Below, in pieces: positions 2,856 to 32,976 of a DNA stretch of 34,029 bases. The stretch is from a virus (lineage: Duplodnaviria > Heunggongvirae > Uroviricota > Caudoviricetes). Each line of letters opens with the position of its first letter. The stretch's first letter is position 1. The DNA is taken from the IMG/VR virus record IMGVR_UViG_649989947_000025, one strand, 5' to 3'. Position numbers and translations under genes: made by a program. The notes under the pieces are model-generated. The model was not told the DNA's origin, did no database searches, and saw nothing but the letters and a program-made list of their open reading frames with translations.

Positions 2856-3074
2856 TCAAAGAGAGAGCGCCACCTGTCCTGATTTCATTGGATGCGGCTG
2901 AACCGGATTTGACTCTTTTGGCGTTGCAATCGAACGAACAAAAGTTTCATGGGTAACAAAAGTATGGCTGCAGTTAATGTTCTGGCACTGGTTGTAACGC
3001 TCTTTGGTCAATGAAGATACCTGAAAACTGCTGCGAGTATGGGCGGCACTTCCACACAGTGGGCAAATCATCAT
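2856..3074 (-). CDS. ogr: Ogr/Delta-family zinc-finger late transcription activator
   Basis: CPLCG...CQNxNC four-Cys motif, about 72 aa from the internal Met (longest ORF extends to 3107); last gene before the host junction as in P2. Confidence 0.85.
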   Translation of the reverse strand: MMICPLCGSAAHTRSSFQVSSLTKERYNQCQNINCSHTFVTHETFVRSIATPKESNPVQPHPMKSGQVALSL

Positions 3075-3161
3075 TTTTCGAGTTCTCCCCATTTTTGCTA
3101 AATTCACAATAATACCGCATTATTCCATTTTGCAAACTTAAAAGCTCTCCATTGCGAAGAA

Positions 3162-7814: not shown

Positions 7815-7940
7815 CGTTGGCCCCGCTTCTCTGAATCGCTTTATACCGCCATTCCAGCACTTCGGTCAGCGGCATAACGTCAGTAACGGATGGCGGCCAG
7901 TGAAAAATGGTGGCGATATCTGCCACCAGATCGTCAACCG

Positions 7941-8243
7941 TCAGGCTGTCGGTAAACCGGCAAGCACCGACTTCTTCAACAAAAAAGTGACAACCTCAAC
8001 CGACATGGCAGTGAGATCTGCCGGGTCCATCTCTGCAATTTCCTGTGCAGTCAGTGCCGGACTGGAGATGCGGGGGATCACGGTCATCATCGCGTTTACA
8101 TCCATATCCATAATGGCCTGCAGGCGTGTACCGCGCAGCGCACCGGACTGCGGTTTACGCAGCACAATTTCGGTGATTTCTGTTTTACCGCGCTTGATGG
8201 GGGTATCCAGTTGAATGGTCTTTTCAGTCTGCTTATCGCTCAT
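7941..8243 (-). CDS. E: tail assembly chaperone gpE (E+E' made by -1 frameshift, extension ends near 7810)
   Basis: 100-aa ORF between FII and T; in-frame T.TTT.TTG slippery heptamer near its 3' end. Confidence 0.8.
   Translation of the reverse strand: MSDKQTEKTIQLDTPIKRGKTEITEIVLRKPQSGALRGTRLQAIMDMDVNAMMTVIPRISSPALTAQEIAEMDPADLTAMSVEVVTFLLKKSVLAGLPTA
7980..7986 (-). other. programmed -1 ribosomal frameshift site TTTTTTG (E to E+E')
   Basis: heptamer is in frame with Phe-Leu of gpE; the -1 frame stays open about 57 codons to a TGA overlapping the T start. Confidence 0.7.
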
Positions 8244-8297
8244 TTTGCTGTCCTGTCAATTGGGTTCTGGCGCGGTATCCCGCGCCGTTCAGATATA

Positions 8298-8813
8298 TCA
8301 GAGGCCGAGGGCGTTGCGGTGCGCTTCCATCAGGTCCACACCGTCCACAATTTCCACCATGTTGATAAGGTCCACTTCATAGAGCACCTCACCATTGATG
8401 GTCAGCTTCGCGTAGCTGTTGGTACTGGTCACTTTGGTGGTGTTGCTTTCGCCCGTCTTCCACTCACCGGAATCCACTTCTTTGTGACGTCCACGCACCA
8501 CAAGCTCCACGGCCTGCACTTCCCCGGTATCGTCACGCTGGATAGAGCCGGTAAAGCGCAACTGGATGCCATCCACCGTGGCTTTGCCCATCTGCTTAAA
8601 CAGCAGCAGTTCAGTACCACCAATGGTAAATTCTGTGTCCAGCGCACTGTCATCAAGCCCCAGATCCACATCCACTGCCCCCGGCATTCCGCCACCGCGA
8701 TACTTCTCATATTTGCGGGTGAATTTCGGCAGCGTCAGCGACTCAACGATCCCCTGCCAGTTGTTCCCGTCGTTAAACAGGTTCAGGTGTTTTAATTTGC
8801 GTGGTAAAGCCAT
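8298..8813 (-). CDS. FII: tail tube protein gpFII
   Basis: 171 aa, size and position. Confidence 0.85.
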   Translation of the reverse strand: MALPRKLKHLNLFNDGNNWQGIVESLTLPKFTRKYEKYRGGGMPGAVDVDLGLDDSALDTEFTIGGTELLLFKQMGKATVDGIQLRFTGSIQRDDTGEVQAVELVVRGRHKEVDSGEWKTGESNTTKVTSTNSYAKLTINGEVLYEVDLINMVEIVDGVDLMEAHRNALGL

Positions 8814-8822
8814 GTTGTCCCC

Positions 8823-9995
8823 TTACGCGCTGACCTGGCTGGCGAAATTCACCAGGTACTGATCGGTGATGCGCTGACGCAACATCAGGTTTTCAAGTGG
8901 CGGCACTGGCGTGTAGTCGTAGTCGATGGTGAGTTTTCCGGCTTTCAGAGTGTCTTTGTCGTTCACCGACTCGTCCAGCCAGCAATCACCACCAATGAGA
9001 TACCCCTGACTGACCAGGCTGCGCATTTTGGCGCGGATGCCCTCGATAATGTCGCGCGCCAGCGACGGGTTCAGCGGTTTGTCCACTGCCCACATGTGCG
9101 CTTCTGCCATTGTGTCCGTCAGCACCTGCGCCGTGCGGGTGTAGTTTTCGAAGGCAAAGAGCGGGTCATCACTCAGGCAGCGGGAACCCCAGAAGCGGAA
9201 ACCGTCTTTACGCACAAGCGTGGTGACGTCGTTCTGGTTCAGCAGACCTGCATCGGTTGCCGGGTCCTGCAGATCCCAGAACACATCTGCAGAAATTCCG
9301 GTGACACCGTTCACGCCCACGTTGGACAGGCTTTTGTGCCACCCGGTCTGCTCATCAATTTTGGCACGCAGACCAAGCGCACGGGCGGTGGCATATGCCG
9401 TTGCTTCGGCATTCAGCACCGTGTCCCAGCCAGTAAAGTCGGGCCAGATCAGCATTCCTTCGCGCTGGCTGAAGTTTTCACGGTAAGTGATCGCCTCCTG
9501 TACCGTCTTGCAGCCATACGCTGACAGGTAGGCAAACCCACGCAGGCTTTGCGCCACACTCAGCAACTCAGTCGCAACGGCTTTGTTATCGTGACCTGGC
9601 ACGCCGAGAATGCGCGGTTTAACGCCGAGCTGTGTCTGGGCAGATAACAGGGCTTTCATGCCTGTTTTTTTACCTTCAGCAGTCACTGCGCCGATGATAT
9701 TGGTCGTGGTTTCTTCTTCCGTTTCACCCTGCGGCACACGCACAACAACGGTCACGGGTTTTGCCTGGTCAGAGATGGCATCCAGCGAACGGGCCAGCGT
9801 GCCGGACTCACCCGCTTTACCGCTGGCAGTCAGCACATCAGTGATCAGCACGGGTTTATTAAGAGGAAACATTTTTGCATCGGCATCATCGCCCGTGCAG
9901 ACCATGCCCACGATGGCGGTGCTCACCGTGGTAATGGATCGGGTACCTTCGTTGACTTCAACAACGCGCACCCCGTGGTGGTAATCCTGAGCCAT
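8823..9995 (-). CDS. FI: contractile tail sheath protein gpFI
   Basis: 390 aa, size and position. Confidence 0.85.
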
Positions 9996-10071
9996 AGTGG
10001 CGAACCTCCTGATTGGATTAGGCTTCGCCCTATGTTGAAGTGATTGTGCCTGACAAACAGCTAAGCGCAGT

Positions 10072-10089
10072 TGTACCGTTATTCACACA
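10072..10089 (-). promoter_or_regulatory. candidate late-promoter activator site (TGT-N12-ACA) upstream of FI
   Basis: TGTACCGTTATTCACACA about 80 nt upstream of the FI start; same half-site spacing as the site upstream of P. Confidence 0.4.
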
Positions 10090-10137
10090 AAATGACGGTA
10101 TTTGTCTGCTTGCAGGGATAATCAAAATAATGCTGAT

Positions 10138-10704
10138 TCAGGGGGATTCATTGCTCTTATTTGCCGGAAATTTTCTATAAATGGTAGAAACGCCTACATC
10201 AAAAATCAGTGCAATACACTGTCTTGATTCTCCGGCCTCGAGTAAACGCCCAATCTGTGCCCACTGTTCGGTGGTCAACTTAGGACGGCGTCCACCTACT
10301 CTGCCTTTGGCACGAGCTGCAGCCAGCCCTGCCATGGTACGTTCAACTATCAGTTCGCGTTCCATTTCAGCCAGGGCCCCCATGACATGAAAAAAGAAAC
10401 GGCCCATTGGGGTGCTGGTATCAATACTGTCAGTCAGGCTTCGGAAATTCACGCCACGCTGACGCAACTCTTCTATCAGCGTAACAAGATGCCGCATACT
10501 GCGCCCCAACCTGTCCAGCTTCCAGACAACCAGAGTGTCTCCTGCCGATAGTGTCCTGAGCAGTTTTTTAAGCCCCGGTCTGTCGGACTTAGTGCCACTG
10601 ATTTTATCCTCAAAAATCCGCTCACATCCCGCGCAGTTCAGTGCATTACGTTGCAAATCGGTGTTCTGGTCATTTGTTGACACGCGTACATAGCCAATAA
10701 GCAT
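10138..10704 (-). CDS. serine DNA invertase, Hin/Gin/Pin/Cin family
   Basis: MLIGYVRVSTNDQNTDLQ...LVVWKLDRLGRSM...GRFFFHVMGALAEMERELI, near-identical to Gin/Pin over the catalytic domain; longest ORF extends to 10749. Confidence 0.9.
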   Translation of the reverse strand: MLIGYVRVSTNDQNTDLQRNALNCAGCERIFEDKISGTKSDRPGLKKLLRTLSAGDTLVVWKLDRLGRSMRHLVTLIEELRQRGVNFRSLTDSIDTSTPMGRFFFHVMGALAEMERELIVERTMAGLAAARAKGRVGGRRPKLTTEQWAQIGRLLEAGESRQCIALIFDVGVSTIYRKFPANKSNESP

Positions 10705-10748
10705 GATCAATCCCCTGAATAAAAACCGTGGATGATGCCAGTTAGCCA

Positions 10749-11147
10749 TTATCTCTGCATTTTCATAAACGTACGTTTAGCATAACGTATCTGTGGCCCC
10801 TTACGGCTGACGCGATCACGCAAGCCGTAATGGTGAACACGGGCAATGCGCTGTACCTTACCTTCAAACTGCACGCTGGCAGAGTCGGCGCTGGCGGCAG
10901 TTTTCAGGTATTTTGTGGTGCGAAGTTTTGTAAACATCTGCCGTTTGATACGGCCTTTTTTACTGCGTGCTGTTACTCGCCTCGGTTCATAGCTGCTGCC
11001 ATCAGGATTGCGTTGCATCCTGATGTTCTGCTGCTGTGTCCGGCGCAGTTCCTGCGCCAGCTGGCGCATCATGCGGCTTCTTGCGGCTGGCTCCAGATTC
11101 GCCAGCAAGGCACTCAGCCAGTCGTCCACCTTCTGCAGTTCAGCCAC
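10749..11147 (-). CDS. S: tail completion / virion morphogenesis protein gpS
   Basis: 132 aa, follows R as in P2. Confidence 0.7.
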   Translation of the reverse strand: MAELQKVDDWLSALLANLEPAARSRMMRQLAQELRRTQQQNIRMQRNPDGSSYEPRRVTARSKKGRIKRQMFTKLRTTKYLKTAASADSASVQFEGKVQRIARVHHYGLRDRVSRKGPQIRYAKRTFMKMQR

Positions 11148-11592
11148 GTTTCACCGTCCACATTTCTTCAGGTTCATCAGGTTCCGCTACCGCTTCAACA
11201 CTCGACACACTGCCGTCAGTGCTGACCAGCACACGCTCCGTCAGTTGCAGGTTAAGGCTGATATCACAGACATCGTTGCGCAAAATATCCACCTCAAAGG
11301 TGAATAACTTTTCCCGTAACGCCGGGTTATTGATGGCATCGGGCTGGTTATCACGCAGCCACAGCAAAACCGGGGCCATCAGCAGATTCTGGTCGCCGCT
11401 GAAATCCTCAATCACCACGTTCAGGGTGTAGCGGTACTCCCATGACATGGAGCTGGCCCCCGTGGCAACCAGCGAACCGTTATCCACAAACAGATGCAGT
11501 TTGTCCGGGTTATTACGGACATAAGGCACTGCTTTATTAAGGGCGTGGCGCAGGGATTGTGGTTTGTTCACTGTTTCGCTCCTGACACGCAA
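11140..11592 (-). CDS. R: tail completion protein gpR
   Basis: 150 aa, size and position. Confidence 0.75.
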   Translation of the reverse strand: MRVRSETVNKPQSLRHALNKAVPYVRNNPDKLHLFVDNGSLVATGASSMSWEYRYTLNVVIEDFSGDQNLLMAPVLLWLRDNQPDAINNPALREKLFTFEVDILRNDVCDISLNLQLTERVLVSTDGSVSSVEAVAEPDEPEEMWTVKRG

Positions 11593-11824
11593 TAATCATG
11601 TCCACTTTGTCTGCACAGACCGCCCAGGCGGCCTCCGTTTCATCCAGCATTGCGTTCAGATCACCGTTAGTGCGCGGCGCTGCCTGCTCCAGCCGACACG
11701 GCGTCACTCGCGGACAACCACTGACGGTAAGCTGCACCTCCGGTGAGTGCCGGACGTTCCCGCAGCCGGATAATGTCAGCAGGCAAAGGAGTATCAGCCC
11801 AGCGGCGTAAATCCTCGTTCTCAC
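11537..11824 (-). CDS. lysC: LysC, Rz1-like outer-membrane lipoprotein spanin, nested out of frame in lysB
   Basis: signal peptide with lipobox LTLSGC, Pro-rich, embedded in the lysB 3' region. Confidence 0.7.
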   Translation of the reverse strand: MRTRIYAAGLILLCLLTLSGCGNVRHSPEVQLTVSGCPRVTPCRLEQAAPRTNGDLNAMLDETEAAWAVCADKVDMIIACQERNSEQTTIPAPRP

Positions 11825-12095
11825 GTTTCAGTTCCTCGATCCGGTGTTGTCGTTGTCTCAGCAGCGCGCTGGTCTGTTCTGCTTCGGCATAGAGCCGCGC
11901 CTGCTCCCGGTTATTGGTTTCAGTCAGAATGGACAGGCTGATAAGCTGGCTGTTGCTCTTTGCCAGTGCCTGGCTTTTGCTCTGCAGCTCGTCTGCCTGC
12001 GTGGTGATGGTCCGGCTGGCATCAGCCAGCCGCCACGTCTGCCAGCCCAGCGCCGCCAGTAATAACGTCAGCACAACCAGCAGCAACCGGTTCAT
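11667..12095 (-). CDS. lysB: LysB, Rz-like inner-membrane spanin
   Basis: N-terminal TM helix then coiled-coil, 142 aa. Confidence 0.75.
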   Translation of the reverse strand: MNRLLLVVLTLLLAALGWQTWRLADASRTITTQADELQSKSQALAKSNSQLISLSILTETNNREQARLYAEAEQTSALLRQRQHRIEELKRENEDLRRWADTPLPADIIRLRERPALTGGAAYRQWLSASDAVSAGAGSAAH

Positions 12096-12469
12096 GCTGC
12101 TACCTGTTGCGCCATCTGATTACGGGTGATCCAGAAGGCAATAACGGTCAGCAGATAAAAGACCAGGGTAATAGCCCACCCCGTCCAGGCGAGACTGACG
12201 ACAATCAGCAATCGCATCACCCAGCTGATAAATACGTTTTCTTTTCGGGTAATTTTCTTCAGCAAAGATGCCCTCAACTCCTGCCAGAGCGGGCCATTCT
12301 TAATTAACGCAGCCAGTGCTACCGGAATTACCGCCCATGTCAGCAAACAGGCTACCCAAACGCCGGACGCTGCCAGTACCGGAAAAATCCCATGCGGATA
12401 CACCATTGCTGCGATTAACAGCGCCATCCATAACATCAGAAACAGCCCGCTGATTAATTTCTTTTTCAT
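12092..12469 (-). CDS. lysA: LysA, lysis-timing membrane protein
   Basis: multi-TM small protein; start taken at internal Met (MKKKLISGL) next to the K stop; longest ORF reaches 12541. Confidence 0.65.
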   Translation of the reverse strand: MKKKLISGLFLMLWMALLIAAMVYPHGIFPVLAASGVWVACLLTWAVIPVALAALIKNGPLWQELRASLLKKITRKENVFISWVMRLLIVVSLAWTGWAITLVFYLLTVIAFWITRNQMAQQVAA

Positions 12470-12470
12470 T

Positions 12471-12983
12471 TCAGTTTGCTCCCTGTAAGCACCAGGCCAT
12501 CTCCCGCGCACGGCGGTTATCCAGCCCCTGATTAAAAACACCTTTTACATAAACCCAGCGCGGCAACTGTCGGCACGCATCCGCCCAGCGCCGCTGATTG
12601 AGCAATTTCACCAGCGTGGAACTGCAGGCATTGCCCGTCCCCACGTTGAAGGCAAACGACACCGTAGCGTCATACACCTTCTGCGGCGGCTGTTGCTTCA
12701 CACACCTTTCCAGTGCCCGCTCCACACGCAGCACGTTAGAGATCAGCCCTTCCGCTGCCTGTCGTTCCGTAATGGTTTTGCCCGGAATGACGCCCGACGT
12801 ATTACCAATGCCGTCGGTCCAGACACCCGCGCTGCACTGATACGGCTGCAGACGACAGCCTTCGTAATCGGCAATCAGTTTCAGCCCCTCCACGGAGGTG
12901 TGAAGCTGCTGAAAACCCGGCAGCGTGGCAGCAATAGCCAGCACGGCCCCGACAAGGCAGCGTTTAACGATTGATGGATTCAT
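12471..12983 (-). CDS. K: endolysin gpK (lysozyme-like), with N-terminal Gly/Ala-rich hydrophobic segment
   Basis: 170 aa, follows holin. Confidence 0.8.
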   Translation of the reverse strand: MNPSIVKRCLVGAVLAIAATLPGFQQLHTSVEGLKLIADYEGCRLQPYQCSAGVWTDGIGNTSGVIPGKTITERQAAEGLISNVLRVERALERCVKQQPPQKVYDATVSFAFNVGTGNACSSTLVKLLNQRRWADACRQLPRWVYVKGVFNQGLDNRRAREMAWCLQGAN

Positions 12984-13179
12984 AGTCCTCCCGCGAGATC
13001 TGCCCGTCGCGCAGAAGCTGGTAGGCTTTGTGTTTGTAGTACCAGTTGATAGCCAGCATCAGCACACCGATCATCAGGCCGCCCAGCGTTGAGGCATCCT
13101 TGATGGACAAATCGCCCAGCCAGGCCAGCACGACGGCGATGCAATACGTGATAAAGGCGCTGATTCGCTCAAGCGTCAT
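12964..13179 (-). CDS. Y: holin gpY
   Basis: 71 aa with two hydrophobic helices and charged C-terminus. Confidence 0.7.
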   Translation of the reverse strand: MTLERISAFITYCIAVVLAWLGDLSIKDASTLGGLMIGVLMLAINWYYKHKAYQLLRDGQISREDYESINR

Positions 13180-13182
13180 AAT

Positions 13183-13386
13183 TCAGTCCCATAGCTGGAC
13201 GGTCTGCACGGTGGTGGTTGTCGGAATGTCCGGCAGCTCCACCTGCAGCCCGTGAGGTAAAAAGGGGCCGTATTCGGCAAGCCCCGGATTTGCCTTCAGT
13301 ACCTGCTCCGTGACACCCTGCGTGCGCCCGTAATGACGCCAGCAAAGTGCGTCCACCGTGTCATACTGATGCGCACGCACTTTCAT
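13183..13386 (-). CDS. X: tail protein gpX
   Basis: 67 aa, same size as P2 gpX, between L and Y. Confidence 0.7.
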   Translation of the reverse strand: MKVRAHQYDTVDALCWRHYGRTQGVTEQVLKANPGLAEYGPFLPHGLQVELPDIPTTTTVQTVQLWD

Positions 13387-13913
13387 CAGATAAGCTCCAC
13401 TGTGCAGTGCGGCGCATCCTGCACCCGGCTGATGGCCCAGCGGGCGTCACGCCATAAATCACCGCTGGCTTCCGCCAGTTCCTCGCCTCGCTTCGCACCG
13501 GATGCCGTGGCGTCATAGTCCTGGTAACGTTCGTTGAGCATGGCGCGTGCCCAGCAGTAAACCGCGTTGAAATAGTGCTGAATGCGCTCGCTTTTGCCGT
13601 CCAGTTGTTCCGCCAGGACTTCTGCCAGCGAGGCATACCCCAGCATCTGCTGGCGTCTGCGAAACTCATACAGCTCTGCGTTGACCTCCGAAATTGCCGA
13701 CAGCGCAACCTGCTTTAAACGCGGCTGCGTCACCGTGCCGTCAGTGCGCATGACACTGCGAAACTCCGACAGGTCCACATCAGGCCAGAACGGCGTATTT
13801 CTGATGATTTCCGCCTGTTCCGGTGCCTGTTCTGGCGCAACAAACTTCATGCTGCTTTCTCCTGAAATAAAGGGCGGTGGACGGGGTTTTGATGTGGCAG
13901 TGCCTTTCGCCAC
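13386..13913 (-). CDS. L: head completion protein gpL
   Basis: 175 aa, size and position. Confidence 0.8.
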   Translation of the reverse strand: MAKGTATSKPRPPPFISGESSMKFVAPEQAPEQAEIIRNTPFWPDVDLSEFRSVMRTDGTVTQPRLKQVALSAISEVNAELYEFRRRQQMLGYASLAEVLAEQLDGKSERIQHYFNAVYCWARAMLNERYQDYDATASGAKRGEELAEASGDLWRDARWAISRVQDAPHCTVELI

Positions 13914-13945
13914 CCCGTGCCGCCCGTGCGCGGGGGCACGTTCTG

Positions 13946-14596
13946 TCAGCGGCTGTCATTGCGCAGTCTGCGCTCCAGCTGCTGTTTGTCTTTTTTCACG
14001 CCACAGCGGGGATCGAGCTGTAACGCATGGTTGAGATGATTAAGGGCGGAAGCCGGATTGCTTTCACTCAGGACAGCGCCAATCGCTTTATGCAGACGCG
14101 CCCGTGACTGGTCCGGCATATCCAGACCGTCTGTCAGCTCCAGCGTCTGCAGCAACAGATCGGCATCAAAGCCGGTGGCGGCAAGCATTGCGCTCTGCGC
14201 TGCATCTGCCATTTCCTCTGCCAGCACGGTCTGCACGTTGCGGTTACCCAGCGGCATCACCCAGCCATGACGCAGGGCATGACGCCCGATCTCCAGCGCC
14301 CCGGCATAATCTCCGGCATCAATGCGCCACAGCATCACGTACATCAGCACGTCATCCTGTTGAGCGCCTCCGGCAGCCAGGACGCCCTCCGCCCAGGCGG
14401 CATATTTCGGCAGCAGCTCCACCTTTATTTCCGCTTTTTTCACCGTGGACTGAACGCCCTTGAGACGGCGGCGGTCTTCCGCCAGTTGCAGCAGCATCAG
14501 GTCATAGCCCGACGCGTGGCGAACACTGCCGCCCTCACGAGCGGCCTGTTCAGCCTGAACGCGCAGGCGATGCTGCCGTGCGGGACTCAGGCTCAT
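13946..14596 (-). CDS. M: terminase small (endonuclease) subunit gpM
   Basis: 216 aa, between N and L. Confidence 0.75.
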   Translation of the reverse strand: MSLSPARQHRLRVQAEQAAREGGSVRHASGYDLMLLQLAEDRRRLKGVQSTVKKAEIKVELLPKYAAWAEGVLAAGGAQQDDVLMYVMLWRIDAGDYAGALEIGRHALRHGWVMPLGNRNVQTVLAEEMADAAQSAMLAATGFDADLLLQTLELTDGLDMPDQSRARLHKAIGAVLSESNPASALNHLNHALQLDPRCGVKKDKQQLERRLRNDSR

Positions 14597-14599
14597 GAA

Positions 14600-15658
14600 T
14601 TACGCTCCGGTTTCTGCTGCGGCGGCGCTGAAGTCGCCAATCTGGATGTTTTCCACCAGTGCGGCGCAGCGGTAGTCCTCAACCACGTAGGCTTCGTTAA
14701 CGGATTCAAAATTTTCAATCCGGTCACGTTTCGGGTTGTCGATAACTGAACGGCGGCGGGTGTCTTCCTGCCAGTAGATGGACAGGTTATCCAGACGGGT
14801 GATCAGCAGCGCATTCGGCGGGAAGAACGGCGCACGCACGGCCTGCAGACCGCCCATGCGTTTCTGACTGATAATCATATCGGCAGCCAGTTTTTCACTG
14901 TTTTCCTGCTCTTTGTTGACCAGCGGGAAATACTTGTCAGACAGCAGTTCACGACCGCAAATCACCACCAGATCGTCATCGTCCTGGTAGACCACGTCGA
15001 TAAGCTCATTGACCGCATCCATCACCACAGCGTCCAGGTTGGCATATTCGCCACCTTTCCCGACTTTCACCGCACCCGGTGTGGTTTCGCCGCCCGTGGT
15101 GGTGCTGCCCATGACGTGATCCGGTGAATCCTCACGGATTTTCTGCAGCCAGCCTTTGTTCACATCCTGCAGCAGCGGGTTTTCACTACGGTTGGAGGTT
15201 TTCGCACGCTTCACGCCGTTAAAGCCGATCATGATGCGGTCCAGTGCCTGACGTTTCACGATGGCGTCACGGATACGCACCTGGAAATCCTGAAACTTCG
15301 CCCACAGGTCCAGCTTCGCGTAGGTCAGCACCGTGTCAAAGTTGGTCTGCTCGCATTTGTATTCCACATCGACCATCAGCGTCGGATCGACAGGCTCACG
15401 CTCTTTTGCGGTGGTATCAGTGGTTCCGGCAATGGTGCTGCCAACACCCAGCCCCAGCAACTGACCAGACTGCTCAGTCACTGGCGTGACGTTAATCAGC
15501 GTCAGGAATGCGGCGGATTGCTGGATCTGGTCTTCCAGCGTCTGCTGCACGGACGGCTCCACGGTGAACTTGCTGGACAGTTCTTCAACTGCCACACCGT
15601 TCAGACGCGCCAGCTGCTGCAGGTAAGCGTTAAAAGCAAAGCGGGTATTCTTCTTCAT
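14600..15658 (-). CDS. N: major capsid protein gpN
   Basis: 352 aa, size and position. Confidence 0.85.
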   Translation of the reverse strand: MKKNTRFAFNAYLQQLARLNGVAVEELSSKFTVEPSVQQTLEDQIQQSAAFLTLINVTPVTEQSGQLLGLGVGSTIAGTTDTTAKEREPVDPTLMVDVEYKCEQTNFDTVLTYAKLDLWAKFQDFQVRIRDAIVKRQALDRIMIGFNGVKRAKTSNRSENPLLQDVNKGWLQKIREDSPDHVMGSTTTGGETTPGAVKVGKGGEYANLDAVVMDAVNELIDVVYQDDDDLVVICGRELLSDKYFPLVNKEQENSEKLAADMIISQKRMGGLQAVRAPFFPPNALLITRLDNLSIYWQEDTRRRSVIDNPKRDRIENFESVNEAYVVEDYRCAALVENIQIGDFSAAAAETGA

Positions 15659-15674
15659 CAGGTTTTGTGCTCCA

Positions 15675-16508
15675 TCAGCAATTGGTCAGAGTGTCAGCGG
15701 GGGCGTTACCGCCTGTTGCACGCTGGCGGTAGTCCTGGCGGCTGTCTTCATGGCTCAGCTTGTCCACCAGTTCGTTAAAGGCGGTCAGCTGTGCCTGCAG
15801 GGCAGTCTCCAGCTCAGACAGGCGTTCTTCCTGCTCAGACAGGGATTTTTCGGTGCGCGCACTCAGGTTCTGCTGCTCAGTGGCGACCAGTTCCACGGCC
15901 TTATGCACATCAGAGAACCGGGCGTCATCGGACTGCTCTTTTTTGGTGAACAGCGCCGTGACACGGGCAAACAGGGACGGTTTGTCCTCCTGGATTTCTT
16001 CCAGTTCGATCACCGTTTCCTCTGCAGCGGTAAAGAGATTGGCAGGATTCTGCTTGCGGTTTGCCAGCGGGTTATGGGCTGCACTGGCGCTGAATGTCAG
16101 CATTTCAGTGCCCAGACTGGCAGGGTCATCAGTGGCAGCCAGGCCGACCAGGTAGGCTTTGCCCGTATCAGCGAACTTCGGGCTGACTTCCATAGAGGTG
16201 AATAATTTCTGGCCTTTTTTCACCAGCTCCACCAGGGACTCCGTTGGCTCAACGTCGGCATACAGCGCCATCTTGCCTGCCAGCGGACCTTCCGTGATTT
16301 CTTCAGCAAACAGCGCCGTCACCTTGCCGTAGCGGTTAAAGGTGCTGTCCGGCAGATAAGACTTGATGTGCTCAAGGTTAATCAGCGCGGTATACACCGC
16401 CGGGTTGTAGCTGGCTGCCATCTGTTCCAGCCATTCACGCTGGATTTCGCGTCCATCGGTGGTGGCACCTTCCACCCCGATGCGAAAACGCTTTGCTTTC
16501 ACTGTCAT
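15675..16508 (-). CDS. O: capsid scaffolding protein gpO
   Basis: 277 aa, acidic coiled-coil C-terminal half, divergent from P. Confidence 0.85.
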   Translation of the reverse strand: MTVKAKRFRIGVEGATTDGREIQREWLEQMAASYNPAVYTALINLEHIKSYLPDSTFNRYGKVTALFAEEITEGPLAGKMALYADVEPTESLVELVKKGQKLFTSMEVSPKFADTGKAYLVGLAATDDPASLGTEMLTFSASAAHNPLANRKQNPANLFTAAEETVIELEEIQEDKPSLFARVTALFTKKEQSDDARFSDVHKAVELVATEQQNLSARTEKSLSEQEERLSELETALQAQLTAFNELVDKLSHEDSRQDYRQRATGGNAPADTLTNC

Positions 16509-16586
16509 GAGCCGTGCTCCGTTAGAAAAAACTTACTGGAGCCTTATGGTTGCGGTGATGGAGGCAGTGAAACAATGCGCGGTATT

Positions 16587-16604
16587 TGTACCGACAACCA
16601 CACA
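16587..16604 (+). promoter_or_regulatory. candidate late-promoter activator site (TGT-N12-ACA) in the O/P divergent intergenic region
   Basis: TGTACCGACAACCACACA about 50-65 nt upstream of the P start. Confidence 0.45.
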
Positions 16605-16650
16605 AACCGCAGGCGGGGAAAGCCTTCATTCAAGGCTGTAGGTTTGTGCC

Positions 16651-18417
16651 ATGAACACCACACTGACACCCGCAGATCTCGATCCCCGTCGGCAGGCCAT
16701 GCTGCTGTACTTTCAGGGATACCGCGTCGCCCGCATTGCTGAAATGCTGGGCGAGAAAGTTGCAACCGTTCACAGCTGGAAAAAACGCGACAAGTGGGGT
16801 GACTATGGGCCGCTGGATCAGATGCAGCTCACCACCGCCGCACGCTACTGTCAGCTCATTATGAAGGAGCACAAAGAAGGGAAAGATTTCAAAGAGATTG
16901 ACCTGCTGGCGCGCCAGTCGGAGCGCCATGCGCGGATCGGCAAGTTTAACAATGGCGGCAACGAAGCCGACTTAAACCCTAACGTCGCCAACCGCAACAA
17001 AGGCCCGCGCCGTCAGCCGGAAAAGAACGTTTTCACCGATGAACAGATTGAGAAGCTGGAAGAAATCTTCCATTCCTCCATGTTCAACTACCAGCGCCAC
17101 TGGTGGGAAGCCGGAAAAACCAACCGCATCCGCAACCTGCTGAAGTCACGCCAGATCGGCGCGACCTTCTATTTTGCCCGTGAAGCCCTGATTGACGCCC
17201 TGCTAACCGGGCGTAACCAGATTTTCCTTTCCGCCAGCAAGGCTCAGGCCCACGTCTTTAAGCAGTACATCATCGACTTCGCCAAAGAAGTGGAGGTGGA
17301 GCTGAAAGGCGATCCGATGGTGCTTCCTAACGGGGCCACACTGTACTTCCTCGGCACCAATGCCCGCACGGCCCAGAGTTACCACGGCAACCTGTATCTG
17401 GATGAATATTTCTGGATACCGAAATTCCAGGAGCTGCGCAAAGTGGCTTCCGGTATGGCTATTCACAAAAAATGGCGACAAACCTATTTTTCCACGCCAT
17501 CCAGCCTGACACACAGTGCTTATCCGTTCTGGTCCGGTGCGCTGTTTAACCGTGGGCGCAACAAAGCCGATAAGGTGGACATCGACCTGTCCCACAACAA
17601 TCTGGCCCCCGGCCTGCTGTGCGCAGACGGGCAATACCGCCAGATAGTCACCGTGGAAGATGCGGTGCGCGGCGGCTGTAACCTGTTCGACCTCGACCAG
17701 CTACGCATGGAGTACAGCCCGGACGAATACCAGAACCTGCTGATGTGCGAGTTCGTGGACGATCTCGCGTCCGTGTTCCCGCTCAGCGAACTGCAGGCGT
17801 GCATGGTGGACAGTTGGGAAGTCTGGACCGACTTTCATGCACTGGCCCTGCGCCCGTTTGGCTGGCGCGAGGTGTGGATCGGTTATGACCCGGCAAAAGG
17901 TACGCAGAACGGCGACAGCGCCGGATGCGTGGTGGTGGCACCGCCAGCCGTGCCAGGCGGTAAGTTTCGCATTCTTGAGCGTCACCAGTGGCGCGGGATG
18001 GACTTCCGCGCCCAGGCTGATGCAATCAAAAAACTGACCGAGCAGTACAACGTGACCTATATCGGCATCGACTCGACAGGCGTCGGTCACGGGGTTTATG
18101 AGAACGTGAAAGCGTTCTTTCCTGCCGTCCGGGAGTTTGTCTACAACCCCAACGTTAAAAACGCTCTGGTACTCAAGGCCTACGACATTATCAGCCACCG
18201 CCGTCTGGAGTTTGACGCCGGACACACCGACATAGCGCAGTCATTTATGGCAATCCGTCGCGCCACCACCGCCAGTGGCAACCGCCCGACCTATGAAGCC
18301 AGCCGCAGCGAAGAAGCCAGCCACGCCGATCTGGCCTGGGCAACAATGCACGCACTGTTTAACGAACCACTGCAGGGCGAGTCCGCCAATACCAGTAATA
18401 TTGTGGAGATTTTTTGA
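16651..18417 (+). CDS. P: terminase large (ATPase) subunit gpP
   Basis: 588 aa, size and position. Confidence 0.85.
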   Translation: MNTTLTPADLDPRRQAMLLYFQGYRVARIAEMLGEKVATVHSWKKRDKWGDYGPLDQMQLTTAARYCQLIMKEHKEGKDFKEIDLLARQSERHARIGKFNNGGNEADLNPNVANRNKGPRRQPEKNVFTDEQIEKLEEIFHSSMFNYQRHWWEAGKTNRIRNLLKSRQIGATFYFAREALIDALLTGRNQIFLSASKAQAHVFKQYIIDFAKEVEVELKGDPMVLPNGATLYFLGTNARTAQSYHGNLYLDEYFWIPKFQELRKVASGMAIHKKWRQTYFSTPSSLTHSAYPFWSGALFNRGRNKADKVDIDLSHNNLAPGLLCADGQYRQIVTVEDAVRGGCNLFDLDQLRMEYSPDEYQNLLMCEFVDDLASVFPLSELQACMVDSWEVWTDFHALALRPFGWREVWIGYDPAKGTQNGDSAGCVVVAPPAVPGGKFRILERHQWRGMDFRAQADAIKKLTEQYNVTYIGIDSTGVGHGVYENVKAFFPAVREFVYNPNVKNALVLKAYDIISHRRLEFDAGHTDIAQSFMAIRRATTASGNRPTYEASRSEEASHADLAWATMHALFNEPLQGESANTSNIVEIF

Positions 18418-19442
18418 TGGGAAAGAGTAAAAAAAACCGCGTAGCGGCGATGAATCAGATCCAGCATAAAAGCCAGACTTCAGCCGAAGCATTCAGCTTC
18501 GGCGATCCCGTTCCTGTTCTGGACCGCCGTGAACTGCTGGACTATGTGGAATGCGTACAGACAGATCGATGGTATGAGCCGCCAGTGAGTTTTGACGGGC
18601 TGGCGCGCACCTTTCGCGCCGCCGTGCATCACAGCTCACCGATTGCGGTGAAATGCAATATTCTGACCAGTACCTACATCCCTCACCCGCTGCTCAGCCA
18701 GCAGGCTTTTTCACGTTTTGTGCAGGACTATCTGGTATTTGGTAACGCCTACCTGGAGAAACGCACGAACCGCTTCGGTGAAGTTATCGCCCTTGAGCCT
18801 GCTCTGGCAAAATACACCCGACGCGGGTTAGACCTGGATACCTACTGGTTTGTGCAATACGGTATGACAACCCAGCCGTATCAGTTCACGAAAGGCAGCA
18901 TTTTTCATCTGATGGAACCGGACATCAACCAGGAGATCTACGGCCTGCCAGGTTATCTTTCTGCCATTCCGTCAGCCCTGCTCAACGAGTCCGCCACGCT
19001 GTTCCGCCGGAAGTATTACATTAACGGCAGTCATGCAGGCTTCATCATGTACATGACCGATGCCGCGCAGAACCAGGAGGATGTGAACAACCTCCGCAAT
19101 GCGATGAAAAGCGCCAAAGGCCCTGGCAACTTCCGCAACCTGTTTATGTACTCGCCTAACGGCAAAAAGGACGGGCTTCAGATCATCCCGTTGTCAGAAG
19201 TCGCGGCGAAGGATGAATTTCTTAACATCAAGAACGTGAGTCGGGATGACATGATGGCAGCGCATCGTGTGCCGCCACAAATGATGGGGATAATGCCTAA
19301 TAATGTTGGGGGATTTGGGGATGTAGAAAAAGCTAGTAAGGTATTTGTGAAAAATGAATTATTACCATTACAAAAAAGAATGAAAGAATTTAATCATTGG
19401 AGCGGTGAAGAAATTATAAAATTCGAGAGATATCAAATTTAG
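18414..19442 (+). CDS. Q: portal protein gpQ (last ~50 codons AT-rich)
   Basis: 342 aa, ATGA overlap with the P stop; 3' end shows a composition shift. Confidence 0.85.
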   Translation: MMGKSKKNRVAAMNQIQHKSQTSAEAFSFGDPVPVLDRRELLDYVECVQTDRWYEPPVSFDGLARTFRAAVHHSSPIAVKCNILTSTYIPHPLLSQQAFSRFVQDYLVFGNAYLEKRTNRFGEVIALEPALAKYTRRGLDLDTYWFVQYGMTTQPYQFTKGSIFHLMEPDINQEIYGLPGYLSAIPSALLNESATLFRRKYYINGSHAGFIMYMTDAAQNQEDVNNLRNAMKSAKGPGNFRNLFMYSPNGKKDGLQIIPLSEVAAKDEFLNIKNVSRDDMMAAHRVPPQMMGIMPNNVGGFGDVEKASKVFVKNELLPLQKRMKEFNHWSGEEIIKFERYQI

Positions 19443-19448
19443 CAAAGT

Positions 19449-19463
19449 GCCTCTAAAAGAGGC
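19449..19463. terminator. short hairpin between convergent Q and the DprA-like gene
   Basis: gcctct-aaa-agaggc stem-loop. Confidence 0.35.
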
Positions 19464-19466
19464 GCT

Positions 19467-20441
19467 TTAAATCAAGTCTAATGTACTCTGTTTCCCTGGC
19501 CATTTTAGCTCTAACAAATACTCCCGGGACTCATTTATGATCATAATCACATCATCATAATCCCGTTTTGTTTTTAGCGCTCTAGCCATGTTGCTCTTAA
19601 CTAAATCAACTGTTCCCTCACAATTAAGATTAAGCGGATTATTAGGTAGGTGAGGTACAACCGCAAACACTGGTCTTTTCGCCTTATTTGCAAACTCAGC
19701 TTGAGTTATCGTTCCGCTATTTAACGCAGCCTCGATTAAAATTGAACCTGCAGATAATCCAACTTGTATCCGATTTCTTTGTACAAATGATTGTTTCTGG
19801 GCCGGCCGACCCATAGGATACTCAGAAATCCATGCACCACCTTTATCCAGAATCTCTTGAGCAAGTCGACTGTTTTGCTTCGGCTTAGCCTCCTCAAGAC
19901 CATGCGCCAAGACAGCAATGGTTTTTCCTTTTGCCTGTAACGTTGCCTTGTGGGCATTCGCATCAGTGCCTATTGCTAACCCACTTACAACAATATACCC
20001 AGCAGACACTATCTGATTAGTGATCCGCCTCGTTATTTCTTCCCCTGCAGGGGAGGTATCACGGGATCCTACAATTGCGACACCCGGCAATTCTTTGAGT
20101 ATACTTTTATCCCCTTTTATGTAGAGAATTGATGGTGGATTAGGAGTAAAAGCTAAACTAAGAGGATAGAATTCAGACCCATATGGTATTAGCTCCACAC
20201 CATTAACATGGTGGTTCTCCAATTCAGCGTTCGCTATTAGAAAATCAGTCTCAGATATTTTATCTTTTAGAAACCCGTGGCTATTAACCATCTCAGTTAA
20301 GTCGCGTATATCACGAATAACATCAAAATCGATAAGCTCAAAGAATTTTAATACACTTTGATCAGATGCTAGCTTCCCGATTTGAATAGCTAATCCAAGT
20401 GTATTTTTTAATTCTTCTGAGTGCACTTTGCTACTCCTCAT
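19467..20441 (-). CDS. DprA/Smf-like (SLOG Rossmann-fold) protein, ShosA-like partner of the upstream PRTase
   Basis: AIVGSRDTS ... VVSGLAIGTDANAHKATL ... TIAVLAHGLE motifs; 11-nt overlap with the upstream gene; AT-rich. Confidence 0.7.
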   Translation of the reverse strand: MRSSKVHSEELKNTLGLAIQIGKLASDQSVLKFFELIDFDVIRDIRDLTEMVNSHGFLKDKISETDFLIANAELENHHVNGVELIPYGSEFYPLSLAFTPNPPSILYIKGDKSILKELPGVAIVGSRDTSPAGEEITRRITNQIVSAGYIVVSGLAIGTDANAHKATLQAKGKTIAVLAHGLEEAKPKQNSRLAQEILDKGGAWISEYPMGRPAQKQSFVQRNRIQVGLSAGSILIEAALNSGTITQAEFANKAKRPVFAVVPHLPNNPLNLNCEGTVDLVKSNMARALKTKRDYDDVIMIINESREYLLELKWPGKQSTLDLI

Positions 20442-21006
20442 AGTTTGCAGTTTCTAGCAGAGCTAATGGCATTATAACTCCAGCTCCTGCAGACTCCAGT
20501 AAATAAAAACACGCAGACAAACTACCGCCTGTTGTTTTAACATCATCTAGTAGTAACACATTTCGCCCCATGAGGTTACCACCCCTAACTCTGATACTAG
20601 ACATGTGACCAGTAATTGAGCGATCTCCTCCTTCACGATGTGCGCTAGGAACAGTGCGTGTTCTTTCCAAACAGCAATCAACAATGCCCCGACGGTGAAC
20701 ATTTACGATTCGCTCGGCGACCTCAATCAAAGCCGGTGAAATTCTGCCTTCAGTGTGAGACGGGACAACTGCTATCGAAAAAGGAGACTCAACAAAACGC
20801 CCACCGCCACCTCTGATTACTAACCGCCCAACCTTATCTATAGCTAATCGAGAAAAACGGTTAATGGCCCTTTGATGATTACGATTATTTTCATCCTTAA
20901 AATCCATCATCTGCCTTGATAGTTCATCGCTATGAGGGTTGCGCTCTCCCAAATGCCAGTAGGGGTGATACAAGCCACACGATGTAATACTTACGGGTAA
21001 AAGCAT
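20431..21006 (-). CDS. phosphoribosyltransferase-domain protein, ShosT-like candidate toxin/effector
   Basis: PRTase PRPP-binding signature VLLLDDVKTTGGSL; first gene of a two-gene operon; AT-rich. Confidence 0.7.
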   Translation of the reverse strand: MLLPVSITSCGLYHPYWHLGERNPHSDELSRQMMDFKDENNRNHQRAINRFSRLAIDKVGRLVIRGGGGRFVESPFSIAVVPSHTEGRISPALIEVAERIVNVHRRGIVDCCLERTRTVPSAHREGGDRSITGHMSSIRVRGGNLMGRNVLLLDDVKTTGGSLSACFYLLESAGAGVIMPLALLETANYEE

Positions 21007-21130
21007 TCTTTATTCTCATGTAGTCCTAACTCAAACAATGTTAAGCGAAATGATATTTCATAGACAAACACAAATTTAAGAATAATCTCAATGATCACAT
21101 TTTTGATTATGAAACAAAGCCAAGAGTTAG

Positions 21131-21165
21131 CGCGCGCTCGTATCCCCGCCACGCCTGCCCGCTTT
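21131..21165 (-). other. candidate cos site (cohesive-end region)
   Basis: minus strand reads GGCGTGGCGGGGATACGAGCGCGCGCT, resembling the P2/186 cohesive-end start recalled from memory; correct position and orientation relative to Q. Confidence 0.45.
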
Positions 21166-21534
21166 ATGCAGTGGTTTTCATGCACATGCATGACATGAGC
21201 AAAAGCCCGCCAGTTCTGGCGGATCTGAGCAAAGACGATCCTCAATCGATCATGCGATTTCATGCAGCATAGTCATGCACTGTCAAGGAAGTGAAAATCC
21301 GTATCTGAATGGCCACTTGAAAAACGGATCATACGGGTTTACAAAGATGAATGTTCGCTGTGAACGGGAAGCGGAAGTTAGCTTTCAGATAACATAATCC
21401 ATATGCACGAGAACCTCTAAAATAGAATGGGACACCTAAGCGGGGTACTTACAACGATTCTTTCCATATTCACAGTTAACACTCTGTTTGGCGTATTTTT
21501 ATTCAAATAGCAAACACCAATAAAAGGAGTTTCC

Positions 21535-21870
21535 ATGAACAATATTCCCCCTATACCACAGTTAGGAATTTATGTCTCAAAAATCGATCCCACCCTACGT
21601 ATCACTGTAACCGATGTTGATATTGTTGATGGTGAGGATGATTCTCCTGATGATGAATTGTTTTATTTAGTCCACTGGATCGAGGGGGAAGATGAAAGTG
21701 ATATGACAGCAATGGGATTTGAGCTAGACCCAGTAGAGTGGCAGGCTTTCGTTGAATCTGAGCAATTAGTGTTTGAGCGTGATCCGTACATGGATTCAAT
21801 CCCCGAAAATTCAAACTTGGCAAAGATTCGGGATTTTCTCATGAAGACTAAACAGAATGATCATTCGTAA
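21535..21870 (+). CDS. hypothetical highly acidic small protein
   Basis: 111 aa, about 26 Asp/Glu vs 7 Lys/Arg; strong SD AAAAGGAG 6 nt before ATG; AT-rich. Confidence 0.6.
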   Translation: MNNIPPIPQLGIYVSKIDPTLRITVTDVDIVDGEDDSPDDELFYLVHWIEGEDESDMTAMGFELDPVEWQAFVESEQLVFERDPYMDSIPENSNLAKIRDFLMKTKQNDHS

Positions 21871-22062
21871 GTGTAAGCATTCATCAGGAAAATGGTTTTG
21901 TAAGTGAATCATCAACTTTTAGAGAGTCTCAGACACTCCCACTTCTGCTTCTGACACAAAGCGGACGATCACTTATCAAAATAACCGCCCACCTTACGCC
22001 TTATTTCACTCATTGCCCAAACTAGCCCCCATCAGAATGAATCCTCCTGGGGGCAACGTTTC

Positions 22063-29797: not shown

Positions 29798-30373
29798 GTG
29801 ACCATGAATTTGGAGAAAGGCGGACGAGGCGCTATAGAGCGCATGGTAGAAGCATATGGCTTCAAGACTCGACAGGCGTTGTGCGATCACTTAGGAATCT
29901 CTAAAAGTACTCTCGCCACACGCTATATGCGTGACTCATTCCCTGCTGAATGGGTAATCCAGTGCGCACTTGAAACGGGCGCCTCGCTTAACTGGCTCAC
30001 GACCGGACATGGTTCAAAGCAAACTTCAGGTAATACAAATACTATGGAAGTCGTTAAATATGTATTATCTGATGGAACCTTGCAGGAAGATGGTTTTTAT
30101 ATTTTCGATAAAGAATTTCTACCATCTACGCTCAAAAATCCGTTTGTAATCACCGATAACAATTCCGTTTTTATTTGCGATAAAGAGTTTAACGATATTC
30201 GTGACGGCAAATGGGTAATAAGTATTGATGCCGAAGTAACAATCCGCGATATCACTCGTTTACCTGGTGGAAGAATCTTAGTTGAAGGTGGAAATAGGGC
30301 TTTCGAATGTAAAAAAGAAGAAATCGAAATTATTGGAAAAATTATAAGCATAACAGTTAAGTACTTTGAGTAA
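29798..30373 (+). CDS. cI: CI-type immunity repressor (186 CI-like)
   Basis: 191 aa, N-terminal CI-type HTH (KTRQALCDHLGISKSTLATRYMRD) plus C-terminal oligomerisation domain; position next to the switch. Confidence 0.8.
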   Translation: MTMNLEKGGRGAIERMVEAYGFKTRQALCDHLGISKSTLATRYMRDSFPAEWVIQCALETGASLNWLTTGHGSKQTSGNTNTMEVVKYVLSDGTLQEDGFYIFDKEFLPSTLKNPFVITDNNSVFICDKEFNDIRDGKWVISIDAEVTIRDITRLPGGRILVEGGNRAFECKKEEIEIIGKIISITVKYFE

Positions 30374-30423
30374 TATAGGAATGTTTTTATGCTTGGTAAA
30401 GCATTTGTTGTGGTGTAAAAAAT

Positions 30424-31347
30424 ATGTCAACTCAAAAATTAAAATTTAGCCATATCAAAAACGATCTGAAAGCAATAGTTATGCAGAATCGTGGAGGGCA
30501 AAAAGTTATTGAGCGTATACTCCTAGCCTATGGCTTCAAGTCACGACAGGCATTATGTAATCATCTAGGTATTTCCCAAAGTACTATGGCCAACAGATAT
30601 GCACGTAATACCTTTCCTGCAGATTGGGTTGTTATATGTTCCATAGAAACAGGAGCATCAATTGAATGGTTAGTTCTTGGTTCAGATACTGCTCCTTCAT
30701 CAGAGCAATATTCTGAAAAACATGCCGTTAATGGCCTTTGCAATGAAGTATACATTCCCACTATAAAGTTCGATAATGAAAAACTCATGAATTTTAACCG
30801 AGGGGGTAAGGCAACAATAGAACGAATTGTCGAGGCTTACGGTTACAAAACGCGCCAAGCATTAGCTGATCACCTAGGTATTTCAAAAAGCACATTAGCC
30901 ACACGATACATGCGTGACATTTTTCCTGCAGACTGGGTTTTGCAGTGTGCAATAGAAACGGGCCATTCTATTGAATGGATTTCATTTGGTACAGGAGAAA
31001 TGAAAAACGCAAAAAATAAAGATACTTTAACATTAGTGAAAAAAGTATTAATCAATGGCAAGTTAATAAATGATGGCTCATATTTATTTGACCCATGCTT
31101 TCTACCTTCCAATTTAAAAAATGCATTCGTAGTATCTACCGAAGACTCTGAATTAATATGTGAAATGGGTTTTAAAGATGTACATGATGGTAAGTGGCTA
31201 GTAAATATTGATGGAGAGAATTCATTTAGAATGATAACTCGACTACCTAAAGGACGAGTTTATATTTCATCCCAAAATCACTCTTTTGAATGTTCGCTTA
31301 CAGACATTGAGTTTATTGCAAAAGTTATTATAAGTTGTTTACATTAA
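30424..31347 (+). CDS. CI-repressor paralog with two tandem CI-type HTH domains
   Basis: residues ~24-88 and ~127-190 each repeat the CI HTH; C-terminal ~110 aa align with the C-terminal domain of the upstream CI. Confidence 0.75.
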   Translation: MSTQKLKFSHIKNDLKAIVMQNRGGQKVIERILLAYGFKSRQALCNHLGISQSTMANRYARNTFPADWVVICSIETGASIEWLVLGSDTAPSSEQYSEKHAVNGLCNEVYIPTIKFDNEKLMNFNRGGKATIERIVEAYGYKTRQALADHLGISKSTLATRYMRDIFPADWVLQCAIETGHSIEWISFGTGEMKNAKNKDTLTLVKKVLINGKLINDGSYLFDPCFLPSNLKNAFVVSTEDSELICEMGFKDVHDGKWLVNIDGENSFRMITRLPKGRVYISSQNHSFECSLTDIEFIAKVIISCLH

Positions 31348-31372
31348 GTAAATTTTTCATGGAGACTTCATA

Positions 31373-32890: not shown

Positions 32891-32952
32891 AAGCATTGTT
32901 TGAATAAACTAAACCATACATTGACCACTGGTCAAACATACAGTTAAATTTA

Positions 32953-32976
32953 GCCCTCTGATATGAGGGCTTTATT
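32953..32976 (+). terminator. hairpin plus T-tract ending at the int start codon
   Basis: gccctc-tgatat-gagggc then tttatt, then ATG at 32977. Confidence 0.5.

Follow-up and report, generated by a model that had tools for sequence, protein, structure and literature searches.

Does the defence cassette of a P2-like prophage begin after the portal gene that precedes it, or inside that gene? In P2-like phages, a hotspot of rapidly swapped cargo lies between gpQ and gpA beside cos, and a system of a DprA-like protein with a PRTase is among its contents (PMC9122126, PMC13586616). This site beside cos serves as a major reservoir of anti-phage systems, and the passages of the two papers drawn on here leave the mechanism of swapping open: Rousset et al. 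2022 (PMC9122126) speculate that cos ends serve as a recombination substrate together with a second homologous event, and Moura de Sousa et al. 2026 (PMC13586616) list homologous or illegitimate recombination as possibilities. We analysed such a locus in a window of 34,029 nucleotides (the whole stretch of DNA under study), for which a first-pass annotation had proposed that the cargo was exchanged by recombination with an endpoint inside the portal gene.

The portal gene, its cargo and the cos site

The window matched NC_011601 (E. coli O127:H6 E2348/69) with 100% identity. On the evidence of its sequence, it is a P2-like prophage of E. coli E2348/69 carrying putative ShosTA defence cargo between Q and cos. 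This is the locus of the hotspot described by Rousset et al. and Moura de Sousa et al.; in the passages considered, cargo varies among near-identical prophages, as it does here. The features of the locus are as follows.

16651–18417, plus strand: terminase gene P (large subunit), directly upstream of Q with a 1-nt overlap
18417–19442, plus strand: portal gene Q, 341 aa, P2 family (Pfam PF04860 and portal homology)
19281–19324, plus strand: crossover interval, a conserved 44-nt block encoding (Q)MMGIMPNNVGGFGD, the final stretch common to all relatives ahead of the divergent tails
19323–19442, plus strand: cassette-linked AT-rich portal tail, 39 codons and the stop, VEKASKVFVKNELLPLQKRMKEFNHWSGEEIIKFERYQI
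19444–19468, no strand assigned: hairpin, candidate bidirectional terminator, occupying the 24 nt that separate the convergent Q and shosA stop codons
19467–20441, minus strand: shosA (DprA-like, 324 aa; PADLOC and Pfam)
20431–21006, minus strand: shosT (PRTase-like putative toxin/effector, 191 aa), with an 11-nt overlap with shosA
21125–21281, no strand assigned: conserved cos island with a presumed 19-nt cohesive end at 21137–21155 (TCCCCGCCACGCC core), the right limit of the cassette

Q matched Pfam PF04860 (Phage_portal) over residues 95–324 with 62.6 bits (cutoff 39.1) and showed 93–95% amino acid identity, at 99–100% coverage, to the portal proteins of P2-like phages from Klebsiella and Escherichia. 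Its synteny is also P2-like, as it lies immediately 3′ of the terminase large subunit gene P and is divergent from the O-N-M-L operon. Its homology to the P2 and 186 portals (gpQ and W) extends from end to end and takes in the C-terminal helix. In those two phages, cos directly follows the portal stop after a terminator (stop at 187 or 196, cos at 1–19), whereas here the ShosTA cargo lies in between. The cargo thus sits between gpQ and gpA and next to cos, with the end of Q at 19442, the cos core at 21137–21155 and the replication endonuclease gene further to the right.

ShosTA, which Millman reportedly described as a defence system in 2022, consists of two overlapping genes, DprA-like ShosA and PRTase-like ShosT, and both were matched here by PADLOC. 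For shosA the match was strong in PADLOC (ShosA, 2.8e-70) and in Pfam (DNA_processg_A, 1.4e-60), and the RefSeq annotation is DprA. The shosT gene, immediately upstream in the same operon, gave a modest match (ShosT, 3.7e-14, 51 bits), had no Pfam match and carries no annotation in NC_011601; a defence role is suggested by homology. For ShosTA as a toxin-antitoxin or defence system, PMC9122126 cites Kimelman 2012, and a DprA and PRTase pair from the P2 hotspot, possibly the allele in the window, was shown to protect against T7 and lambda (PMC9122126).

Composition of the 3′ end of Q

We found that the GC content falls from 0.53 in the body of Q to 0.30 in its last 165 nt, and GC3 from 0.645 to 0.255. 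Codons 19323–19439 have an overall GC of 0.26, with 0.38, 0.21 and 0.18 at the three codon positions. The corresponding values for ShosA are 0.52, 0.37 and 0.33, so that the tail of Q exceeds its cargo in AT content, and a composition simply shared with the cargo cannot account for the excess. The segment 19280–19442 (GC 0.30) was compared with 16,262 overlapping 163-nt segments of the late region (2856–19279; mean GC 0.557, sd 0.045, minimum 0.368). None of them was as AT-rich (z = -5.7), which places the tail at the low-GC extreme of the 16.4 kb of late genes.

When the region from P to ShosT was analysed, the single maximum-likelihood change point fell at 19279 (support interval 19177–19327); within Q alone it fell at 19321, and the likelihood ratio observed for Q was matched in none of 2,000 codon shuffles. 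The reading frame is intact to the TAG at 19440–19442. GC, GC3, change point and frame therefore all bear out the abrupt in-frame switch to AT-rich composition that had been noted at the end of the gene. Its extent had been given as the last ~50 codons; the AT-rich switch stands, and the extent has to be shortened, as the divergent part covers ~39 codons with dense divergence from ~19325. The proposed start at 19280 coincides with the last backbone-type mismatch in ten related prophages (see below).

The tail as a genuine portal C-terminus

An open reading frame that merely runs into foreign DNA would also show a change of composition, and its tail would not be portal sequence. The composition jump, and nothing else, speaks for such an artefact. 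Against it, the tail aligned gap-free and at the same length with the C-termini of P2 gpQ, 186 W and all relatives, sharing the pattern VFV.NEL.PLQ...E.N.W.G.E.I.F..Y with P2 and 186, and it keeps V309, F310, N313, E314, N326, W328, F336 and Y339, which are invariant across 69 portals. The alignment and the retained residues rule out read-through into foreign DNA, to which we attach practically no probability.

We also compared the tail with that of a diverged ShosTA phage (L103). Twelve codons differed synonymously and six non-synonymously, and the first 24 residues were the same, which indicates that purifying selection still acts on the tail. By these sequence comparisons, the portal appears to stay a complete and constrained protein. 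Structure prediction was less informative: AlphaFold gave poor models (pLDDT 31 from the single sequence and 45 from a 69-sequence alignment) in which only the helix 303–329 was confident, so residues 303–329 are predicted to form one long helix. A sequence search of the PDB with Q returned no relative.

Body and tail of Q have different closest relatives

Prophages with other cargo at this site (TIR, DUF4062, PIN, a frameshifted gene) were ~90–100% identical to the window through most of Q, and TIR, DUF4062, PIN and other cargo were found to adjoin Q genes 91–93% identical to that of the window. Identity to these relatives drops from 0.9–1.0 to ~0.7 after ~19320 (at 19223 for the PIN phage L006), and dense divergence starts at 19325. 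Each of the other-cargo prophages has its own AT-rich tail, with a GC of 0.34–0.42. Where the Q bodies are 93–97% identical and the cargo differs, the tails are only 59–68% identical. The comparison that had been suggested, with prophages carrying other cargo, thus gave near-identical bodies and divergent tails, and the divergence step and the composition step in Q fall at the same point.

The reverse pattern was seen in ten prophages and viral contigs that also carry ShosTA. Over the 864 nt of Q before 19281 they show 43–58 mismatches to the window (~5%), the last of which is at 19280 in all ten. From 19281 to 21130 there are only 0–21 mismatches in 1,850 nt (0–1.1%; three in L090). Nine of the ten tails have none, and the remaining one (L097) has one, at 19343. 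The comparators comprise few haplotypes, so that one or two historical events may lie behind the last mismatch that they share at 19280.

In a triplet test with the window, L006 and a ShosTA phage (L090 or L088), 27–35 of the 40–50 informative sites before 19217–19226 favoured L006, while from 19238 to the stop codon 49/49 favoured the ShosTA phage (Fisher p = 2.5e-13 and 4e-15). The position of the split is due in part to L006 itself, whose own cassette boundary lies at ~19223. The crossover of the window is bounded by 19281 and 19324. This block is moderately AT-rich and encodes the invariant motif MGIMPNNVGGFGD, and the residues it encodes are invariant or nearly so in the 69 portals.

Taken on its sequence, the portal would be a chimera of two portal genes, whose body shares history and composition with the backbone and whose C-terminal helix and tail share them with the cassette. 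The proposal of a cargo exchange by recombination with its endpoint inside the portal gene is supported by four concordant, independent lines of evidence: the triplet test, the divergence step, the linkage described below and the tails of P2 and 186. The chimeric C-terminus that had been predicted along with it also holds, since the nearest relatives on either side of the break are discordant.

The tail travels with ShosTA

We searched 5,426 complete E. coli genomes for the tail together with the first 94 nt of shosA. At an identity of at least 99% the query was found in 23 genomes, with the full query covered in all 23, and all other matching genomes were below 90%. The entire Q-ShosTA-cos block is present in these 23 genomes, and the tail always occurs with ShosA. 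Outside ShosTA cassettes, neither phage records nor E. coli genomes yielded a portal with this tail. The last ~40 portal codons thus appear to be inherited with ShosTA and not with the rest of Q.

Two distant P2-like contigs, L099 and L103, extend this association. Their Q bodies are 80% and their ShosTA genes 77% identical to those of the window, and the same tail type is recognisable (LPLQKRMKEF/LN...; 74–81% nucleotide identity). These tails have a GC of 0.29–0.30 and are joined to Q bodies with a GC of 0.54–0.55. In contrast, 26 pairs of loci with Q bodies at least 93% identical and with unrelated cargo had tails that were 66% identical on average. GTDB pairs with moderately related cargo had tails no more alike than their bodies (tail minus body = -0.11, n=11). 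Long-range linkage shows only as co-divergence, and linkage is demonstrable only for ShosTA and via composition.

The right limit of the cassette

The cohesive end was placed by homology to the P2 and 186 cos; the cos core of the window ends at 21155 and matches the reverse complement of the P2 and 186 cos ends. With other-cargo prophages that share the right flank of the window, homology returns at 21125–21130 and stays at 98.4–98.6% over the next 1.67 kb. With same-cargo prophages that have different right flanks, mismatches restart at 21161–21169. The two bounds bracket the presumed cohesive end at 21137–21155. The cos core is functionally conserved, and its freedom from mismatches therefore cannot by itself place the junction at the physical end. 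An island of ~155 bp (21125–21281) is common to all relatives, and a second variable slot lies beyond it, at the position of old/tin in P2.

Tail composition follows cargo composition across species

One genome per GTDB species was scanned, which gave 80 loci, 75 of them usable. In GC, the final 120 nt of Q correlated with the 1.5 kb downstream (r = 0.84), and in a joint regression of tail GC over the 75 loci the slope on downstream GC was 0.99 and the coefficient of Q-body GC -0.05. In 42 loci with low-GC cargo, the mean GC starts at ~0.52 at -150 nt and has dropped to 0.28 by the final 30 nt, with values of 0.47, 0.40, 0.37 and 0.28 from -120 nt to the stop. No fall towards the Q stop was seen in the 21 loci with GC-normal downstream DNA.

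The distance to cos gave a similar separation. Loci with 600–3,500 nt of cargo between Q and cos (n=50) had a tail-minus-body GC of -0.154, as against -0.007 for those with the cos core 154–255 nt past the Q stop (n=7; Mann-Whitney p = 1e-5). The tails of P2 and 186 also have a normal GC (0.52 and 0.55); alignment with these two portals shows the tail of the window to be homologous throughout.

These data bear on the view that an AT-rich, weakly constrained 3′ end is intrinsic to the portal family and unrelated to cargo. The last 20 residues are indeed the most variable internal part of the portal (1.45 bits against a mean of 0.29), cargo-free portals have tails somewhat less conserved than their bodies at large distances (-0.076), and tail GC is more than 0.10 below body GC in 37/75 loci, i.e. 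in half of those sampled. However, tail GC equals body GC in P2, 186 and the seven GTDB loci with cos after Q; it tracks cargo GC with a slope of about 1 and is indifferent to body GC; the same tail is found on backbones differing by 5%; and in close cargo-free pairs (only three) the tails are as conserved as the bodies. The normal tails of cargo-free portals and the tracking of cargo GC largely refute an inherent AT-richness of portal 3′ ends, and we consider it very improbable. Full alignment of the tail with canonical portals and AT-richness being typical there had been named as what would count against an exchange. Both are seen, the second in 37/75 loci, but this is not a true refutation: AT-rich tails owe their frequency to a chimerism that recurs wherever cargo separates Q and cos, and none is seen where cos lies immediately after Q.

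A model for cassette exchange

The breakpoint, the linkage of tail and cargo and their generality across species are direct observations. As to the unit that is swapped, it probably runs from the conserved block inside Q to cos, with the tail sharing the ancestry of the cassette and the portal becoming a chimera. Its left crossover would lie in or upstream of 19281–19324 and its right limit in the cos island (21125–21168). With its start inside Q, each cassette carries its own last ~39 portal codons, hairpin and cargo. At the left junction, homologous recombination could proceed via the conserved portal motif and the upstream backbone; the right junction would be at or beside the cohesive end. 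The cassette forms the terminal ~1.9 kb of the packaged linear genome, so that one crossover in Q together with cos joining would swap it; this is the mechanism on which Rousset et al. speculated, and the data fit it. Alternatively, exchange may occur by double homologous recombination, with the second crossover in the ~45-bp conserved cos core.

The papers on the hotspot (PMC9122126, PMC13586616) bound it, in the passages considered, by whole flanking genes, whereas here the variable unit enters the portal gene by ~120–220 nt. Neither these passages nor broader literature searches yielded a portal-internal endpoint, which older work on P2 recombination may hold; the passages likewise make no mention of a tail composition that follows the cargo or of two slots flanking a ~155-bp cos island. 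The hotspot and ShosTA are already known, and the portal-internal endpoint appears to be undescribed in the parts of the hotspot papers considered. In the window and in 50/57 species-level loci with a locatable cos core, the left endpoint lies within the last ~120–220 nt of Q. The right endpoint falls in a span of ~45 bp that surrounds the cohesive end, and what had been speculation becomes a testable model. The endpoint in Q marks, to a few dozen bases, the site at which defence cassettes are swapped between related phages. Pipelines that define hotspots by whole flanking genes overlook a portal protein that differs from cassette to cassette.

Mosaic junctions inside genes are classical in temperate phages, both lambdoid phages and mycobacteriophages. 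Such mosaicism was reportedly described by Juhala et al. in 2000 and in the work of Hendrix. The event in Q is a well-resolved instance of intragenic mosaicism, with a general pattern across loci. As in the classical joints, ancestry changes abruptly within a gene, the chimera is functional and a short conserved sequence adjoins the junction. Unlike them, as they are mostly idiosyncratic and at gene boundaries, the site is recurrent across species and tied to a defence hotspot and to the packaging site.

Why the tail is AT-rich

Linkage accounts for the history that tail and cargo have in common, but not for the AT-richness of that history. The tail would share the long-term fate of the cargo, through import from a low-GC source or through AT-ward drift, and the locus can serve as a natural experiment on the cause of AT-richness in defence cargo.

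One version is that a P2-like phage from a low-GC host donated tail and cargo as one piece, with the crossover at the conserved motif; the tail would then be a remnant of a donor portal gene that was AT-rich throughout. The abrupt composition step coincides with the homology break, and as a true homologue of portals the tail must derive from some P2-like phage. The Budvicia prophage L082 is uniformly low in GC (body 0.41, tail 0.38) and shares the residues RMKEFN..W.G.E.I.F..YQ with the tail of the window. However, when 50,697 phage records were searched with the tail (blastn) and its 43-aa translation (tblastn), nothing exceeded 81% nucleotide or 73% amino acid identity, none of them combined a uniformly low-GC portal with a closely matching tail, and the best matches were all enterobacterial phages with chimeric tails themselves. 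The bodies are GC-normal in all three ShosTA backbones examined, and the tail, read by eye, is equally near to the enterobacterial consensus and to L082 (~26/39 residues each). Dozens of different cassettes would, moreover, need separate low-GC donors. We therefore regard import as possible, if somewhat unlikely.

The other version is drift in place, in which a tail too diverged to recombine with the backbone pool forms, with its cargo, a small lineage that seldom recombines and decays AT-ward, at synonymous sites and in its amino acids alike. It is consistent with the graded fall in GC over the last 120 nt of the 42 low-GC-cargo loci, with the quantitative dependence of tail GC on cargo GC, with an amino acid composition that shifts with GC3 (FYMINK rho = -0.71) and with changes of the R to K and V to I type on the otherwise local-consensus sequence of the tail. 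The gradient could, on the other hand, stem from variable breakpoints (19223 in L006, ~19325 in others) combined with protein constraint, and the excess AT of the tail over ShosTA is left unexplained. The graded fall and the FYMINK shift are compatible with in-place decay and are not decisive for it; drift is a possible but tentative reading.

A joint reading would be that cassette-locked sequence, even a piece of an essential structural gene of normal GC, drifts to the composition of the cargo because it has lost recombination with the backbone, while a single crossover in Q and cos joining exchange the cassettes as the last ~2 kb of the linear genome. As a whole we hold this to be rather doubtful. 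If drift were true, AT-rich phage defence islands would be a consequence of linkage and recombination isolation and not a mark of foreign origin, and the portal tail would be a built-in control for hotspot cargo turning AT-rich in place.

The AT-rich DNA might instead be selected for a function at the DNA or RNA level that serves the cargo. It might terminate the convergent transcription or control it by antisense RNA, or it might bind nucleoid proteins that insulate cargo expressed in the lysogen from the silent late genes. The AT content of the tail is above that of the cargo, and the 24 nt between the stops of Q and shosA hold a strong hairpin, replaced by others in diverged relatives. Against this, a promoter and terminator scan of 19100–21400 gave nothing inside the tail and no more sites in total than in shuffles, no promoter-like site was seen within 19280–19466, the hairpin fell below the criteria of a strict terminator scan and was not flagged, and, coding constraint aside, no DNA motif is common to the tails of different cassettes. 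We consider selection at this level improbable.

The hairpin itself (19444–19468) was predicted to fold at -15.5 kcal/mol as RNA of the plus strand (z = -4.1) and at -12.9 kcal/mol as RNA of the minus strand (z = -2.9). In L099 and L103 its site is taken by different sequences, which are palindromic again.

Variable genes on both sides of cos

We found a second variable slot directly after the conserved cos island of about 155 bp. In the window it is occupied as follows:

21282-22050, second slot, the window's own version: a 111-aa ORF and a DinI-like gene

The ShosTA prophages compared here (L088-L091 and the window) share their cargo between the portal gene Q and cos, but their second slots hold different genes: a KAP P-loop NTPase, other hypothetical genes, or the 111-aa ORF with the DinI-like gene. 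It follows that the slots on either side of cos assort independently of each other.

RefSeq lists no CDS in E. coli E2348/69 (NC_011601) for the ShosT-like ORF of the window (20431-21006, minus strand, 191 aa, PADLOC 3.7e-14), and in ECCHD184 this ORF is labelled 'hypothetical protein'. A third AT-rich island, with a GC content of 0.30-0.37, lies near the immunity/integrase end:

30000-33000, third AT-rich island: ORFs of 307 aa and 505 aa

The product of the longer ORF was found to match the PADLOC candidate system PDC-S20 (5e-78), with weaker PADLOC matches to PifA and QatA.

The portal gene and its 3' junction

The portal tail (19323-19439) has a GC content of 0.26 and a GC3 of 0.18, while the ShosTA genes (19467-21006) have values of 0.41-0.45 and 0.33-0.36, respectively. 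In the window the tail is thus more AT-rich than the cargo it accompanies; the opposite was observed in the GTDB sample, where the average tail is slightly less AT-rich than the cargo. Q and shosA converge, and a hairpin (19444-19468) lies between their stop codons; other palindromes were found in its place in phages with diverged ShosTA (L099 and L103). The structure of this inter-stop hairpin appears to be kept while its sequence changes.

In the 5' third of Q (18417-18700), informative sites switch in short blocks between two comparison phages, one carrying PIN cargo (L006) and one carrying ShosTA (L090 or L088). This alternation suggests further old recombination tracts within the portal body. 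The first ~23 portal residues are hypervariable (1.75 bits); maturation of P2 gpQ removes the N-terminal 26 residues.

Among the GTDB loci, an in-frame stop was found within the portal tail of a Candidatus Pantoea superficialis MAG (L047), and in Pantoea stewartii (L044) the Q frame extends about 30 codons beyond its usual end, into unrelated sequence; both tails may be damaged or rearranged. Two portal homologues from the database, P0003 from Burkholderia (505 aa) and P0019 from E. coli (469 aa), exceed the normal length by 130-160 residues and may be fusions or have mis-called starts.
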